DNA of 57,650 nucleotides. Source: Candidatus Micrarchaeota archaeon (GTDB taxonomy: Archaea; Micrarchaeota; Micrarchaeia; Micrarchaeales; CABMGC01). The position numbers and the translations under genes are program-made. The DNA is taken from the NCBI GenBank assembly GCA_021817125.1, contig JAKAWC010000003.1, positions 1-57,650 of the forward strand, given 5' to 3'. Shown here in pieces: positions 20,813 to 27,376 of the stretch (the first letter of the stretch is position 1; each line of letters opens with the position of its first letter). Below the pieces are notes generated by a model. It saw only the letters and a list, made by a program, of their open reading frames with translations. It was not told the DNA's origin and searched no databases.

Positions 20813-21169
20813 TCAGCAGGTCGGTGTGGCTATCTGCGTTCCGCCGAATCCCACTACAAGGCTGACCACGTACGGCGCAAGGAGGACCAGGATTATTCCT
20901 ATGATTCCACCGAGTACCATTCCCATAGACCATCCCTGTAGGTTGCCCTTTATCTGACCCGCAGTAGGCAGGAAGTGCGCTACCGCGTAGAGCACGCCAC
21001 CAATTATGAACAGCACGAGCGCAAGGACGCCGATCACTCCCCTGACGTCTCCGACGAGTACGCAGAGCTGCGATGATACAGCGGCTACCTGGGCGCCTAC
21101 TATTGGTGTTATAATGCTTCCGAGTACTGCCAGATAAAACAGAGTCTGGAGTTGTCTTGCTATATTCAT
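20813..21169 (-). CDS. VirB2/CedA1-like pilin, copy A
   Basis: Signal-like N-terminus ending VGA-Q, two hydrophobic helices split by a short basic loop; GGTG RBS before ATG 21169 (ORF track extends to 21196). Confidence 0.72.
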   Translation of the reverse strand: MNIARQLQTLFYLAVLGSIITPIVGAQVAAVSSQLCVLVGDVRGVIGVLALVLFIIGGVLYAVAHFLPTAGQIKGNLQGWSMGMVLGGIIGIILVLLAPYVVSLVVGFGGTQIATPTC

Positions 21170-21273
21170 ATTTACACCGTATTTTTCGTTTATCATATAA
21201 CGAAGCCCCTTTTTATACCTTTCTTTTGCGGCATCAGAGCCAGGTACTCGGGCGCTTCATCTCTTGGTGACGG

Positions 21274-21627
21274 TCAGCAGCCGACCGGCGCTAGAGTATT
21301 GCCCCCGAAACCTATTATCATGTTTATGGCGAACGGAGCGATGAGCACAAGCACCACGCCTATTATGCCGCCGAGTACCATTCCCATAGACCATCCCTGC
21401 AGGTTCTGCTTTATCTGCCCGGCCTGCGGTAGGAAATGACCGACAGCGTAGAGCGCGCCGCCTATTATGAACAGCACGAGCGCAAGGAGCCCGATGAGCG
21501 CCCTGACTATGCCCACGATGTTGCAGAGGTCGCTGCTTATCGCGGCCACCTGCGCGTTGGCAACAGAGGCGACGTACAGGAGAAGGAATGCCGCATAGAG
21601 TATTATCTGGTGGTTCGTATTTTTCAT
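21274..21627 (-). CDS. VirB2/CedA1-like pilin, copy B
   Basis: Same architecture; shares LALVLFIIGG.LYAV.HFLP.AGQIK.NLQGWSMGMVLGGIIG with copy A; GGTG RBS. Confidence 0.72.
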   Translation of the reverse strand: MKNTNHQIILYAAFLLLYVASVANAQVAAISSDLCNIVGIVRALIGLLALVLFIIGGALYAVGHFLPQAGQIKQNLQGWSMGMVLGGIIGVVLVLIAPFAINMIIGFGGNTLAPVGC

Positions 21628-21696: not shown

Positions 21697-22611
21697 TCAG
21701 TTCTCGAGAGACGCCACGAGCCCGTCTATTATCCCGTTGACGCCTATGCCTCCCGTCGACCTCACAGCTATCCGGTGGCTGAGCACCGGCCTGGCGAGCC
21801 ACTTCACGTCGTCTATGGTGCATGCCTTCCTGCCCTCTATGAGCGCCTTAGCCTTTGCGCACTTCATGAACGCGATGTCCGCCCTGGGGCTTCCGCCCAT
21901 GACTACGTGTATGTCGGTCCTAGAGAGCCCTACTATCTGGGTGATGTACTTGACCACGTCGTCTGGCATCTGTATGCCCTTTGCGTCATTCTGCATCTGG
22001 ATTATATCCGCAGTGGTGGCCACCTTCTTCACCTCTATCTTTTCCTCCCTCTCCTTTATGCGGAGCATGTTCTGCTCCTCCTCCATCGACGGGTATTTCA
22101 CCTCGATGCGGATGAGGAACCTGTCGGCCAGCACCTTCGGGATCGGGACGGTCCCCTCTATGTTGAGCGGATTCTGGGTCGCGAACGCTATGAACGGAGG
22201 GGGTATCTTCATGGTCTCCGTGCCCGTGGTCACCTGCTTCTCCTCCAGCGTCTCCAGGAGGCCGTTCATCGTCTTGGGCGCAGCCCTGTTCAGCTCGTCA
22301 GCGAGCAGTATGTTCGTGAAGACCGGTCCACGCTTGAACTTCACCTTCCCGTCCTGTTCGTCCATGTAGGTGTAGCCGTTTATGTCCCGCAGGTCGAGGT
22401 CGCCGGTGCACTGGATCCTCTTGAACTCTGCCTGGAGTATTGAGGCGAGCGTCTTCGTCGTGGTCGTCTTGGCCGTTCCTGGGACCCCTTCCAGCAGCGC
22501 ATGGCCGTCAGCTACGAGCGCGATGACCAGAAGCTCCATTACGTCCGTCTTTCCAGCTATGTGCTTCTTCATCTCCTGCAGGACGGCCCCATAAATCTCG
22601 CTCGCGTTCAA
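21697..22611 (-). CDS. moxR: MoxR-family AAA+ ATPase
   Basis: GHALLEGVPGTAKT, FKRIQCT, GPVFTNILLADELNRA, ATQNP, DRF, GGSPRA; probable TTG start at 22611. Confidence 0.92.
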   Translation of the reverse strand: MNASEIYGAVLQEMKKHIAGKTDVMELLVIALVADGHALLEGVPGTAKTTTTKTLASILQAEFKRIQCTGDLDLRDINGYTYMDEQDGKVKFKRGPVFTNILLADELNRAAPKTMNGLLETLEEKQVTTGTETMKIPPPFIAFATQNPLNIEGTVPIPKVLADRFLIRIEVKYPSMEEEQNMLRIKEREEKIEVKKVATTADIIQMQNDAKGIQMPDDVVKYITQIVGLSRTDIHVVMGGSPRADIAFMKCAKAKALIEGRKACTIDDVKWLARPVLSHRIAVRSTGGIGVNGIIDGLVASLEN

Positions 22612-22699
22612 GCATTTCCCTCTCGTCAAGACAGTATATACACGATACAAAAGCTTAATAATACTTACAGCCCATAAGATACGTATTCTAGGTGCAAAA

Positions 22700-23038
22700 A
22701 TGATAGGAAAGAGTAGTTCTGACGCTGCAGTAGTCACTATGCCGGAAGTGCTGGAGATACTCGAAGCCAGGAAGAAGGGCGGAGAGCTCGGATACGAGCA
22801 GCAGCTCGCTTACGATTACGTCAAGAAGTTCACCAAGATCAGCGAGGCTGATGCCAAGAAGATGAGGAAGGAGATCGAGGAGCTCGAGCTCAGCCCAAAG
22901 GTCGCCGCCAAGGTGGTGGACATAATGCCACTGGACCAGATCCAGTTGAGGCAGGCTCTAATCCTCGAGAAGAAGACCGTTGCCGACGATGTGGTCGTGA
23001 AGGTCATGGTTATAGTGGAGAAGTACAGGGGGAAGTAA
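22700..23038 (+). CDS. rpo4: RNA polymerase subunit Rpo4 (RpoF)
   Basis: MIGK...EV.EIL...ELGYEQQLAYDY..KF..., KVVDIMP; adjacent to DUF655. Confidence 0.92.
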   Translation: MIGKSSSDAAVVTMPEVLEILEARKKGGELGYEQQLAYDYVKKFTKISEADAKKMRKEIEELELSPKVAAKVVDIMPLDQIQLRQALILEKKTVADDVVVKVMVIVEKYRGK

Positions 23039-23063: not shown

Positions 23064-23660
23064 ATGGAGAGGGATCAACGAAAGGGGGATTTGGAGGAGT
23101 ACGCTGTCGTACTGGACTACCTGCCTACCGGCAGGTCGTTCGCAGCCAAGTCTGAGCCGCTGGTCCAACTGATAGGGGAGAACAAGTTCACGCTCCTAGA
23201 AGCAATTCCAAAGGGCACAGACCTCCGGGTCATGGAGCGCGTCTACATAGGGAAGGGCGAGCGCGACAAGATATCGCTCATCAAGTCAAGGATACCATAC
23301 GAAGAGCTTACAGAGGGCTCGAAGAAGGAGGTGTACAATGTCATCTATGAGGTTATCAAGAAGAATGAGCCCAGGTTCGTAGATCTCTTCAACACCGCAT
23401 CGCCGCTCAACATACGGATGCACTCGCTCGAGCTTCTGCCAGGAGTTGGCAAGAAGCATCTCGATGCGATACTCAAGGCCAGGGACGAGAAGAGGTTCGA
23501 GTCTTTCGCCGACATAGCCGCCCGTGTGCCGCTCCTGCAGGACCCTGTAAAGCTGCTGGCGGAACGCGTGCTCATGGAGCTCAAGGGCGAGTCCAGATTC
23601 TACGTCCTTTCGCGACCGTACTCTACGCACCAGGAGGAGCGCGGAGGAATGCACAGATAG
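23064..23660 (+). CDS. DUF655 putative nucleic-acid-binding protein
   Basis: EEYAVVLDYLP, QLIGENKFTLLE, RMHSLELLPGVGKK (HhH). Confidence 0.92.
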   Translation: MERDQRKGDLEEYAVVLDYLPTGRSFAAKSEPLVQLIGENKFTLLEAIPKGTDLRVMERVYIGKGERDKISLIKSRIPYEELTEGSKKEVYNVIYEVIKKNEPRFVDLFNTASPLNIRMHSLELLPGVGKKHLDAILKARDEKRFESFADIAARVPLLQDPVKLLAERVLMELKGESRFYVLSRPYSTHQEERGGMHR

Positions 23661-24276: not shown

Positions 24277-24516
24277 ATGGGAAACAATAAAGAAATCGTC
24301 AAGATGTTCTCGAAGCAGCTCACCGCTCTTATAACGACCGCATTCGGTCTGGTGGCGGCGCTCGCGTGGAACACAGCAATACAGAGCCTGTTCCAGACGC
24401 TCTTCGGCAGCACGACCGCGCTGGTCCCGATGTTCTCGTATGCGCTCCTGGTGACTTTGATCGCCATAGTGGCAATATACTACGTATCCAAGCTTGATGC
24501 AAAGATCAACACGTGA
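24277..24516 (+). CDS. DUF5654-like small membrane protein
   Basis: LITTAFGLVAALAWNTAIQSLF...YALLVT motif. Confidence 0.8.
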   Translation: MGNNKEIVKMFSKQLTALITTAFGLVAALAWNTAIQSLFQTLFGSTTALVPMFSYALLVTLIAIVAIYYVSKLDAKINT

Positions 24517-24609
24517 TGCGCAGGGGCGCAGTGCCAGCGCCACACCAATCGACGTTGGCACCTGGAACCTTTTTAGTCCCTCCCATCGTTGTCTAGACAA
24601 GGTGGTCTT

Positions 24610-24783
24610 ATGGCAATGGATGGAAAAACAAAAGGAATGGTATCGAAGGGAGCAGGAATCCTGATAATCCTGCTGGATCTGTACTGGATATATACCGGGC
24701 CTGGATTCGGAACGTCCATGTTCGCGATAGTCGGATACATAATCCTGCTGCTGTCGCTGGTCTGGCTCTGGGCAGACATGTAA
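24610..24783 (+). CDS. Small 2-TM membrane protein
   Basis: GGTGG RBS then MAMDGKTK...; two hydrophobic helices. Confidence 0.6.
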   Translation: MAMDGKTKGMVSKGAGILIILLDLYWIYTGPGFGTSMFAIVGYIILLLSLVWLWADM

Positions 24784-24801
24784 ACTTCTTGCAAGAAGTT
24801 T
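24782..24801. repeat. Perfect 20-bp palindrome AAACTTCTTGCAAGAAGTTT (dispersed element copy 1)
   Basis: Read directly; near-identical copy at 28076-28098. Confidence 0.75.
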
Positions 24802-24817
24802 GCTCAAGAACCGGTGT

Positions 24818-24842
24818 GTGGCTTATCGAGCCACCTTTTTTT
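24818..24842 (+). terminator. Hairpin plus T-tract, terminator-like
   Basis: GTGGCT-TATCG-AGCCAC then CTTTTTTT. Confidence 0.45.
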
Positions 24843-24955
24843 ATTTTACCTTCTTCTTACAGGTACCATACGCCCCGACAGGGCGCACCGCCGGCTTGCG
24901 CCCTCCCCCGAGATGGAAGACTGGCTGTCGCTATGCGACATTAAAAAAGTCAGGA

Positions 24956-25243
24956 TCACGGCTTGTTCAGGTGCATCTGGGGGACGATTATCGTCCTCTT
25001 CGTGTACTTCGAGACGTTGAACTGGACAACGTACGAGCCGCCCCTCTTCTCGATCACCGTAGCCACCTGCCCCCTGTACCTCGGGTGTGGTATGTTCCTG
25101 AAGTTGGACTTCGGCACGATGACTACCTTGTCGCCGACCTCGAAGCTCTTGATGAGTTGGCTTATGCCTAACCTTGACGGCTTGTGGTGCCTCGCCAAGT
25201 TGCGGGTCCTGCCTATGAACGTGCCGTGTGAACGCTGGGTCAT
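24956..25243 (-). CDS. rpl21e: 50S ribosomal protein L21e
   Basis: MTQRSHG...TR..L...FEVGDKVVI...PHPRYRGQVATVIEKRGGSYVV...IIVPQMHL. Confidence 0.93.
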   Translation of the reverse strand: MTQRSHGTFIGRTRNLARHHKPSRLGISQLIKSFEVGDKVVIVPKSNFRNIPHPRYRGQVATVIEKRGGSYVVQFNVSKYTKRTIIVPQMHLNKP

Positions 25244-25331
25244 GCTAGTCACTAATAAAACGATAGCAAGTGAGTATTGGACTACCAATATCTAAATACC
25301 TTTCAGTCTTATTTAAATAGGGGTTTTATAA

Positions 25332-25652
25332 ATGGCAAAGCGAAAGATAGTGCTCCATCCTGATTTCAAAATTGAGAACATAGTCGCCAGCGCCGACCTT
25401 GGCGTTGACCTCGACCTGTATGGGATAGCCAAGGACTCTACCGACGTCGACTACGAGCCGGAGCAGTTCCCCGGAGCGATATGCAAGATACACGACCCCA
25501 AGACCGCGCTTCTGCTGTTCAAGAACGGAAAGATAATCTGCACCGGGGCGAAGACCGAGGCCGACATAAGGCGCGCCATCGACCAGGTGATAAAGGTTGT
25601 CAGGCATCATATCCTAGAAGTGCAGTCGGTAGACGATGTGAAGAAGAAGTAA
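25332..25652 (+). CDS. TATA-binding-protein-like protein with only one TBP repeat
   Basis: IENIVASADL...LDL...YEPEQFPG...PKTALLLFKNGKIICTGAK; 106 aa, a single repeat. Confidence 0.85.
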   Translation: MAKRKIVLHPDFKIENIVASADLGVDLDLYGIAKDSTDVDYEPEQFPGAICKIHDPKTALLLFKNGKIICTGAKTEADIRRAIDQVIKVVRHHILEVQSVDDVKKK

Positions 25653-25655
25653 CTC

Positions 25656-26291
25656 TCATATCCTGGTCCTTACGTATCTATAGAGCAGGTACATCGCGAG
25701 CGCGAAGGCTGCGGCTGCAAACGATGTCACGTATATGTTCGTCATCAGGGCGTAGTATCCGAATCCCACTAGGACTACCTCCCAGATTACGACACCTGCA
25801 ATGGAGTACATATAGAACTTGTCGATGGGCATCATGGCAAAGCCCGCCGGGAAGTTGATGAATCCCCTGACGACCGGCAGCATCCTTGATATGAATACCG
25901 TTATGGGCCCGTTCCTATAGAACCACGCGTCGAACCTCTCGAGCTGCGCCTTCTTGATGTGGAAGAACTGGAGATGGGTGTAGATGACCTCCTTCTCGAA
26001 GAAGTAAGCCAGATAGTAGTCGATGCCCATGCCGATTATGCTGCCCGCGAGCGCGACGAGCAGCGCCACCACCACATTGATGTCCCCCTGTGCAGCGAAG
26101 TATCCTATGGCGGGTAGCACCATCTCGCTGGGTATCGGTAATGACGCAGATTCGAGAATCATCAATAGGAATATGGCAACGTAGCTGTACGCTCCTATAA
26201 AACCCGCTATTGACGCGTAGCTGCCGTGGAACAAGGCGAGCAGGTCTGCGACAATGTCCATCAGGATAAAGAACATGCTACAATACGGCAA
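25656..26291 (-). CDS. DedA-family membrane protein
   Basis: LESASLPIPSE, VFISRMLPVVRGFINFPAG; true start may be a downstream Met. Confidence 0.92.
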   Translation of the reverse strand: MPYCSMFFILMDIVADLLALFHGSYASIAGFIGAYSYVAIFLLMILESASLPIPSEMVLPAIGYFAAQGDINVVVALLVALAGSIIGMGIDYYLAYFFEKEVIYTHLQFFHIKKAQLERFDAWFYRNGPITVFISRMLPVVRGFINFPAGFAMMPIDKFYMYSIAGVVIWEVVLVGFGYYALMTNIYVTSFAAAAFALAMYLLYRYVRTRI

Positions 26292-26332
26292 CTCATCCTT
26301 TTAAGCGTTATCCGTGAATTAGATACGAGCCC

Positions 26333-27376
26333 ATGCGAGTAATACGATTCAACAATGTCGCCCAGTCACTCAAGCTTGAGCCCGAGTCGTTCGACGACCT
26401 CTACCTGATAGCAAGGGTCGTGTCAGGCGGGGATGTAGTCGAGGCAAAGAGCCTGAGGCGTTTCAGGGCGAGCGAAGGAGACGTCGGGGAGCAGAAGGAG
26501 GTCACGATACGGCTCCAGGTGGAGCGTGCGGAGGTCGACAAGAGCGCGGACATGCTCCGCATCACCGGCAAGATAGTCGGCGGCCACCCAGAGGAGTTCA
26601 TCCGCATGGGCAGCTACCATACGATAAACCTCGGTGCCGGGGAGATAATTGATATACAGAAGCCTGAGTGGAAGGACTACCTATTAAAGAGGATAAAGCA
26701 GGCGATGCTCGACTCGAAGAAGCCGAAGCTCGGTATCATAGTGATGGACGACGAGCTCGCAACAATCGCGTACGTGAAGGGATACGGCATAGAGATTCTG
26801 TCGCAGCTCTATAGCAAGCTCTCAAAAAGAATGAAGGAGAAGGACTTCGAGAAGCAGAAAGAGCAGTACTTCAATGACCTAATCAAGTCGGCCAACAACA
26901 TGAAGGTCGACATAGTGGTGCTCGCCGGACCCGGCTTCACGAAGGACGACCTCAAGAAGCACATAGCGCAGAAGGGGGCGAAGGTCGAGAAGAAGGTGTT
27001 CTACACCGCGGCGAGCGATGCTGAGCGCTCTGGCGTGCGGGAGGTGATGCAGAGCGACATAGTGGCAGACATATTCGAGAAGGAACACGTGAGGAAGGAG
27101 TTCGAGTACCTCAACATCTTCCTGCAGGGGGTCCGCACGAGCGGTGCGTTCTACGGCAACGCACAGGTGCGCGAGGCGCTCGAGTCGTACAGGGCAGGCA
27201 TAGTGCTGGTCAACGACTCCGTTCTTGACGACAAACAGGTAAAAGAGTTGCTCGATATTGCCGATCAGAGCAAGGTACGGATAGAAATATTCAACTCGGA
27301 GGATGACGCGGGCATGCAGTTGAAGAACTTCAAGGACATAGCCGCGATATCCAAGCTGCTGATGTCAAAGGAGTAG
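26333..27376 (+). CDS. pelA: Pelota/Dom34 mRNA surveillance protein
   Basis: PESFDDLY, LRITGKI, GSYHTI, LAGPGFTK. Confidence 0.95.
   Translation: MRVIRFNNVAQSLKLEPESFDDLYLIARVVSGGDVVEAKSLRRFRASEGDVGEQKEVTIRLQVERAEVDKSADMLRITGKIVGGHPEEFIRMGSYHTINLGAGEIIDIQKPEWKDYLLKRIKQAMLDSKKPKLGIIVMDDELATIAYVKGYGIEILSQLYSKLSKRMKEKDFEKQKEQYFNDLIKSANNMKVDIVVLAGPGFTKDDLKKHIAQKGAKVEKKVFYTAASDAERSGVREVMQSDIVADIFEKEHVRKEFEYLNIFLQGVRTSGAFYGNAQVREALESYRAGIVLVNDSVLDDKQVKELLDIADQSKVRIEIFNSEDDAGMQLKNFKDIAAISKLLMSKE

Follow-up and report, generated by a model that had tools for sequence, protein, structure and literature searches.

In archaea other than those considered here, as well as in eukaryotes, the TATA-binding protein (TBP) has two repeats, and the TATA box is read by two TBP lobes (one lobe would cover only half of its 8 bp). 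As stated in the accessible text of PMC7221094, no archaeal or eukaryotic transcription proceeds without TBP, whose two lobes are part of one chain; single-lobe archaeal versions are mentioned there in one methods sentence. The closest described single-domain proteins are covered by the accessible parts of PMC3597702. The halobacterial TbpA has a single TBP domain close to true lobes, coexists with full-length TBPs and is not essential, while the monopartite TBP-domain proteins of Thermococcales (its Table 3; about 90-100 aa, single domain) are strongly diverged, cluster apart and accompany a normal TBP. The protein described below (TBP-A) is like both in having a single domain. Unlike TbpA, it was found without a full-length TBP in its source assembly and is encoded by a gene that in relatives is often the sole tbp; unlike the Thermococcales kind, it scores about 101 bits on PF00352, with no strong divergence.

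TBP has been counted as present in DPANN (PMC8407392, consulted portion), and the one-lobe form is treated as ancestral or is not raised in the accessible parts of PMC4910066, PMC12917281 and PMC8131849. Within its accessible text PMC3597702 makes no mention of ARMAN or Micrarchaeum, TBP and TATA are absent from the available main text of PMC5498576, PMC8561730 and PMC8784108, and the portion of the PMC8975820 supplements at hand contains nothing relevant. A literature search conducted mostly at the level of titles and abstract openings (with subscription journals thinly covered) returned no description of a lineage whose only TBP is one-repeat. Published one-repeat TBPs accompany a normal TBP, and a sole one-repeat TBP appears to be new. 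As several of the one-repeat tbp genes are labelled hypothetical proteins in databases, they are easily missed.

The window (the whole stretch of 57,650 nt analysed here, from a contig of a Candidatus Micrarchaeota assembly) encodes TBP-A in the gene tbpA (Table 1). An earlier sequence-only reading had described a 106-aa frame with one TBP repeat, a clean start and stop, and no room for a second repeat, and both parts of this description held: a single PF00352 match was recovered, and, since the convergent DedA/VTT gene ends 3 nt past the tbpA stop (rpl21e being divergent on the other side), there is no space for another repeat. Logan contigs from two sequencing runs cover positions 24500-26600 unbroken, with 0 differing letters and no joint looping back (both runs come from a single study, which may also have supplied this DNA, and are not independent). 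The genes rpoF and DUF655 lie 2 kb upstream. In the loci compared, at least one of rpl21e, rpoF and DUF655 turns up no more than about 1.5 kb from the A gene in 35 of 41 cases, from other one-repeat genes in 31 of 39, from two-repeat genes in 19 of 20, and from the paralogue B (see below) in 0 of 31, and by this shared neighbourhood tbpA is the orthologue of the normal tbp, occupying the slot of the two-repeat gene of relatives. By eye, about 14 of 28 listed family loci also show the palindromic AT element downstream of the TATA-like element, with much the same spacing; it is probably the region melted near the start site.

Table 1. Features of the tbpA locus and of its unlinked paralogue (window positions, except for tbpB)
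Feature	Position	Strand	Basis
tbpA (P0001), one-repeat TATA-binding protein, 106 aa	25332..25652	+	ORF, ATG at 25332, TAA ending 25652
PF00352 repeat, residues 11-91 (profile 1-83 of 85)	25362..25604	+	profile match, 100.8 bits, E 3e-29
N16-I17-V18, strand 1	25377..25385	+	invariant in 42/42 aligned one-repeat proteins; aligned to 2Z8U/1AIS
Stirrup E42-P-E44-Q-F46	25455..25469	+	invariant in one-repeat alignment; glutamates are TFB contacts per PMC7221094
F63-K-N-G-K, second conserved Phe and KNGK signature	25518..25532	+	one-repeat alignment
TATA-like predicted promoter element of tbpA	25288..25302	+	similar position in most family orthologues
Palindromic AT element, ~20 nt downstream of TATA-like element	25310..25319	.	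sequence
rpl21e (PF01157), divergent neighbour, ancestral tbp locus marker	24956..25243	-	ATG at 25243 by sequence; profile match
rpoF (Rpb4), ancestral tbp locus marker	22700..23038	+	ORF, profile match
DUF655 gene, ancestral tbp locus marker	23064..23660	+	ORF, profile match
DedA/VTT gene, convergent, family-level neighbour	25656..26291	-	adjoins 20/41 A loci
Pelota/eRF1-like gene, family-level neighbour	26333..27376	+	adjoins 14/41 A loci
tbpB, one-repeat TBP, 102 aa	G000:C21:237-545 (L002)	-	PF00352 match, unlinked to tbpA

TBP-A reached none of the 10 cut-offs of the NCBIfam TBP models (best 97.2 bits vs 278), because half of the protein is absent. Its AlphaFold2 model (pLDDT 86.4, pTM 0.70, built on a 42-sequence alignment) was matched by Foldseek to the M. 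jannaschii TBP (2z8u_A) with an rmsd of 0.8 Å over 79 columns (E 1.1e-7), and to solved archaeal TBP lobes in general with rmsd 0.8-1.5 Å and identities of 38-46%; the model thus predicts the helix-grip fold of a TBP lobe. Residues N16, V18, E42, E44, F46, L61, F63 and G72 are invariant in the 42 aligned one-repeat proteins (42/42) and have identical counterparts in solved archaeal TBPs, and T71 is present in TBP-A (Ser in one clade). We take the DNA-contact set to consist of the N-x-V of strand 1, two Phe per lobe and the T-G of strand 5, with strand 1 presumably facing the DNA and forming the centre of the lobe-lobe sheet, as in solved TBPs, and F46 presumably being the first intercalating Phe of the lobe. 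The KNGK signature is common to the repeats of Micrarchaeota and Iainarchaeota. According to the available text of PMC7221094, the two stirrup glutamates are TFB contacts and a conserved Phe at position L5.1 is the key DNA contact; in our own mapping F63 would correspond to L5.1. The gene is under purifying selection (dN 0.050, dS 0.777 and dN/dS about 0.06 against a same-genus orthologue, 85 codons) and the one-repeat length is kept in relatives; both comparisons had been proposed by the sequence-only reading. Compared with canonical archaeal TBPs (M. jannaschii 2Z8U, P. woesei 1PCZ/1AIS, S. acidocaldarius 1MP9; PRK00394), TBP-A is alike in lobe sequence (69-76 bits per lobe), fold, DNA- and TFB-contact motifs and the genomic slot held by the two-repeat gene of relatives. 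It differs in having one lobe per chain, below all NCBIfam cut-offs, so that its saddle would either be built with exact two-fold symmetry from two identical chains or combine A and B chains.

The source assembly (G000; 893 kb, 30 contigs, 85% complete) contains exactly two PF00352 matches, both one-repeat (tbpA and the unlinked tbpB), and a profile search of its contigs found no two-repeat TBP. The genome search that the sequence-only reading had called for thus returned another one-repeat gene and no full-length protein. TFB was not found in this 85% complete assembly either, and was present in 60 of 60 other genomes searched (60/61 with G000 included), which led us to reject a linked loss of TFB. 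As G000 is incomplete and lacks even TFB, the absence of a two-repeat TBP there proves little alone, and the case rests on relatives.

Among 61 genomes (G000 and 60 others at least 90% complete, with all matches listed), 41 carried one-repeat TBP genes (two genes in 27, a single gene in 14), 19 a two-repeat gene, and one gave no match. The single-gene state was confirmed with a B query as well in two single-contig genomes (G033 and G018) and in G004, G020 and G011. All one-repeat open reading frames examined (111/111, of which three are open at a contig start) end 49-72 residues past the stirrup, which leaves no length for a second repeat. The cultured ARM-1 (which may already be among the counted genomes) has two tbp genes only, of 306 and 288 bp, and one tfb (PMC8784108, Dataset S4), in a genome described as complete and circular and built from long and short reads (PMC8784108). 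Two unpublished genomes (G050 and G035) sit in our tallies; with both left out, one-repeat genes occur in 40 of 60 genomes and B in 35 of 83 f1 genomes, and none of our conclusions depends on them.

These counts bear on the reading in which TBP-A would be a TFB-titrating accessory regulator, or would owe its length to a collapsed assembly or a recent truncation, while a normal TBP went unassembled. Such an accessory is known in halobacterial TbpA (PMC3597702, accessible part), G000 is incomplete, and assemblies do falter at near-identical TBP repeats (in G088, G019 and probably P0089). The one-repeat state, however, is consistent by family (among the matches listed, 150 of 239, and fetched loci, 23 of 29 family codes are one-repeat and six, f5, f10, f13, f14, f16 and f19, are two-repeat, with many families represented by one to four genomes), it is found in single-contig genomes and in a published long-read circular one, and the tbp slot is occupied. 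Closed genomes without a two-repeat TBP already contradict this reading, which we regard as extremely improbable; the titrating function suggested by the sequence-only reading is left with no full-length TBP found for it to regulate and with a gene that sits in the tbp slot. That same reading had held that a two-repeat TBP at this locus in relatives would point to truncation or misassembly. Within the order, every A or B locus examined in families f1 and f3 has a single repeat (72/72, bar a duplicate at a contig end of G019), and two-repeat genes at the locus were met only in the six more distant families named above (among the matches listed).

The two-repeat tbp of G088 is broken by an N gap, which explains its odd match. 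In 40 of the 41 one-repeat genomes no two-repeat TBP was found, while in the other (G113) one was recorded; it stands on a 3.7-kb contig, forms the longest branch of the repeat tree and is a probable contaminant. At the end of G019:C39 (L024:1485-1897) an exact duplicate of the 3' part of the repeat (99 nt, ~35 residues) is joined in frame, via a linker, to a full repeat, and reflects either an overlap in the assembly or a recent tandem duplication that has produced a two-repeat TBP. In family f8 (G083, G089; L074-L078) each genome has three one-repeat tbp genes, two of them 1 kb apart and near-identical, which we read as a second, independent expansion.

The paralogue tbpB lies near a thermosome gene and, in many relatives, between the thermosome gene and a glycosyltransferase-like gene. 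In G000 its product is 49% identical to TBP-A over 94 residues, and it evolves under purifying selection (dN 0.066, dS 1.007, dN/dS about 0.065). The presence of two half-size genes in one genome, together with some residues of B that by eye recall canonical C lobes, would fit the proposal of a split TBP gene, its N-terminal half being A and its C-terminal half B. Against it, the A and B repeats of f1 and f3 fall into a single clade (SH-aLRT 99), B being a subclade of it (100), in a quick tree of 85 columns in which 81 of 148 forks are open and one of two tandem copies at L075 was left out, and B is equally near the N and the C repeats of two-repeat relatives (identity 0.45-0.52 for both). Furthermore, B is dispensable across genera: among 84 genomes of family f1, 44 have A alone, 35 both genes, one B alone and four neither, and 12 genera (41 genomes) are without B. 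Hence, the part of the split-gene idea that foresaw a second one-repeat gene stood, while the part that made it the missing half did not, as B is by these comparisons a duplicate of the one-repeat gene, absent from whole genera, dispensable in much of f1 and conserved where present. The split-gene reading is largely refuted, and we give it the least credence of all those considered. The remaining irregularities, G006 and G060 with B alone and G076 with no TBP match, are most simply incomplete assemblies. In G255 (C2:19561-19845) an A-type match carries one internal TAA, with B also present (sequence error or a broken A).

If B is no missing half, it might still be a partner. In such a reading the working TBP here would be mainly an A-B heterodimer, the copies having specialised after duplication so that an asymmetric saddle is assembled from separate chains. 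In its favour, a conserved B is present in 36 of 84 f1 genomes as well as in the f3 genomes examined, G000 itself carries it under purifying selection, it keeps the EPEQFPG stirrup and both Phe, it differs consistently from A in strand 1 and in strands 3-4, and the A-B identity (about 55%) is like the N-C identity of two-repeat relatives (0.55-0.74). In family f3, the two genes nearly always occur together (in all 19 genomes at least 90% complete) and A is more diverged, so that a heterodimer fits there. On the other hand, A stands alone in more than half of the f1 genomes, single-contig ones included, the A consensus is nearly the same in f1 genomes with and without B, and the two genes are unlinked. 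We consider this arrangement unlikely for the genome at hand, though it is the main rival of an A-A homodimer.

We reason that TBP-A is probably the main, essential TBP of the cell and that it likely works as a putative A-A homodimer; of the three options offered by the sequence-only reading, the symmetric homodimer is, judging from single-gene genomes, the best fit. Since the TATA box is read by two lobes, we infer that two copies of the protein are required wherever the only tbp gene encodes one lobe, and since the A of this genome is almost unchanged from the A of single-gene cells, the A-A form is the likely default. Strand 1 and the long C-terminal helix would provide the contacts between two TBP-A chains related by a two-fold axis, the four Phe (F46 and F63 of each chain) would kink the TATA box, and both lobes would present an identical E42/E44 stirrup to TFB. 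B would be an accessory duplicate, possibly pairing with A or with itself. Because a symmetric saddle gives no direction, orientation would be set by TFB reading the BRE, and not by TBP; the TFB-BRE contacts would suffice. Orientation is indeed described as relying on TFB contacts with the BRE in the accessible text of PMC7289017. A natural two-repeat protein (P0002) has repeats identical over 67 residues, so near-symmetric saddles exist in sequence data.

A further alternative is that the single lobe works as a monomer, or with a non-TBP partner, TFB doing most of the promoter recognition. Single TBP-fold domains are known to bind nucleic acid in RNase HIII (PMC7221094, accessible part), and TFB frames are longer in f1 and f3 (about 350-420 aa from stop to stop). 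Upstream of G000 genes (526 upstream regions, crude gene calls), however, promoters retain 8-bp TATA-like boxes, half of which one lobe would cover: the words TTTAAATA (20 vs 1.3 expected) and TTTATAAA (11 vs 1.3 expected) are enriched, with a maximum at -45 to -26 and A-rich bases in front of them. Strand 1, through which the lobes meet, is moreover invariant, and we hold a monomeric mode to be very improbable. The TFBs of one-repeat lineages keep the PRT motif (28 of 29 at first match, the remaining row having matched elsewhere) and motifs of the VTEVTIRNR type; we take PRT to be the partner of the TBP stirrup glutamates, and the VTEVTIRNR-type motif to belong to the C-terminal helix-turn-helix. 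Only in this order does the first cyclin match of TFB start at profile position 11 (3-5 elsewhere).

A phylum-scale group with only a one-lobe TBP breaks the rule of two lobes per chain. It offers a natural test of whether a symmetric one-lobe ancestor could work and of whether TFB and BRE alone can set direction. As the cultured ARM-1 has the one-repeat state and the proteins (about 100 residues) are expressible, ordinary biochemistry suffices.

As to origin, the sister phylum is informative. In a 61-genome sample of Iainarchaeota (from which L156, titled Micrarchaeota, was left out), nearly all strong matches are two-repeat, the exception being a 90-aa one-repeat TBP beside rpoF and DUF655 on a deep Iainarchaeota branch (G185, L296/L303, G185:C38:27624-27869), the sole such case among 26 relatives searched. 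The two-repeat TBPs of the six micrarchaeal families and of Iainarchaeota share with TBP-A the locus, the EYEPEQFPGAI and FKNGK motifs and 49-65% lobe identity, and differ by having two repeats per chain (N-C identity 0.55-0.74) with signs of gene conversion. In 12 of 19 such genes (L113-L132; L117 was left out of the DNA comparison owing to a gap mismatch) the two repeats share identical DNA runs of 37-95 nt, while synonymous sites between repeats differ at 31-84% overall; identical runs despite diverged synonymous sites suggest gene conversion. The one-repeat state most likely arose from a two-repeat gene through recombination between repeats that gene conversion had kept alike. Between two-repeat groups the N/C positional signal amounts to little: NN+CC minus NC+CN came to about +0.03 to +0.07 for five of six comparisons and to -0.03 for the sixth.

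At least three state changes are needed on RpoA' plus partial RpoB' trees rooted on Iainarchaeota as the sole outgroup. In a mixture-model tree the two-repeat Micrarchaeota group together as a clade (99) that branches from within one-repeat lineages (95, 94, 85, 83), which suggests a one-repeat ancestor and re-duplication, as opposed to five or six separate collapses by our own count. The AU test did not reject the one-repeat Micrarchaeota as a single clade, i.e. a single collapse (p 0.327, LG+G4); we favour, without regarding it as proven, a re-duplication in a single clade of Micrarchaeota. Whichever history holds, the one-repeat state is most likely a secondary reduction or reversion from a two-repeat TBP and not an ancient relic, since other archaea, eukaryotes and the sister phylum are two-repeat; the link to a primordial single-repeat ancestor that the sequence-only reading had drawn is for this reason probably wrong. 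A more far-reaching history is conceivable, though we lean somewhat against it: a putative one-lobe homodimer in the ancestor of Micrarchaeota (perhaps with Iainarchaeota), after which the origin of the two-lobed TBP was replayed, by tandem duplication and fusion in f5/f10/f13/f14/f16/f19, by unlinked duplication into specialised A and B partners in this order, and perhaps once more in G019. If true, the whole series from symmetric dimer to asymmetric saddle would be represented in living cells. Repeat similarity, used as an indicator of closeness to the ancestral TBP gene (PMC4910066, accessible part), may here reflect gene conversion.

Several minor observations accompany these results. Many Iainarchaeota have an extra, weak one-domain PF00352 match (20-32 bits, in a frame of 90-130 aa, e.g. 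G230:C2:7851-8030) that may be of the divergent, Thermococcales-like monopartite kind. The source labels of close one-repeat relatives read Micrarchaeota, Micrarchaeia or Micrarchaeaceae, and Marsarchaeota for three; the RNA polymerase tree joins this family to the rest of Micrarchaeota, opposite Iainarchaeota, at odds with the Marsarchaeota labels, and we assign the family to Micrarchaeota. RpoA' frames of 1128-1330 aa, instead of about 850, were seen in f4, f9, f12, f15, f17, f22 and f26-f29 (L231-L236, L256, L259-L261), a clade in which RpoA' and RpoA'' may be fused. Within the window, a MoxR-like AAA ATPase (21697-22737) precedes two tandem small membrane proteins with near-identical cores (20813-21196 and 21274-21627, minus strand), which presumably resemble pilin/TrbC-type subunits.
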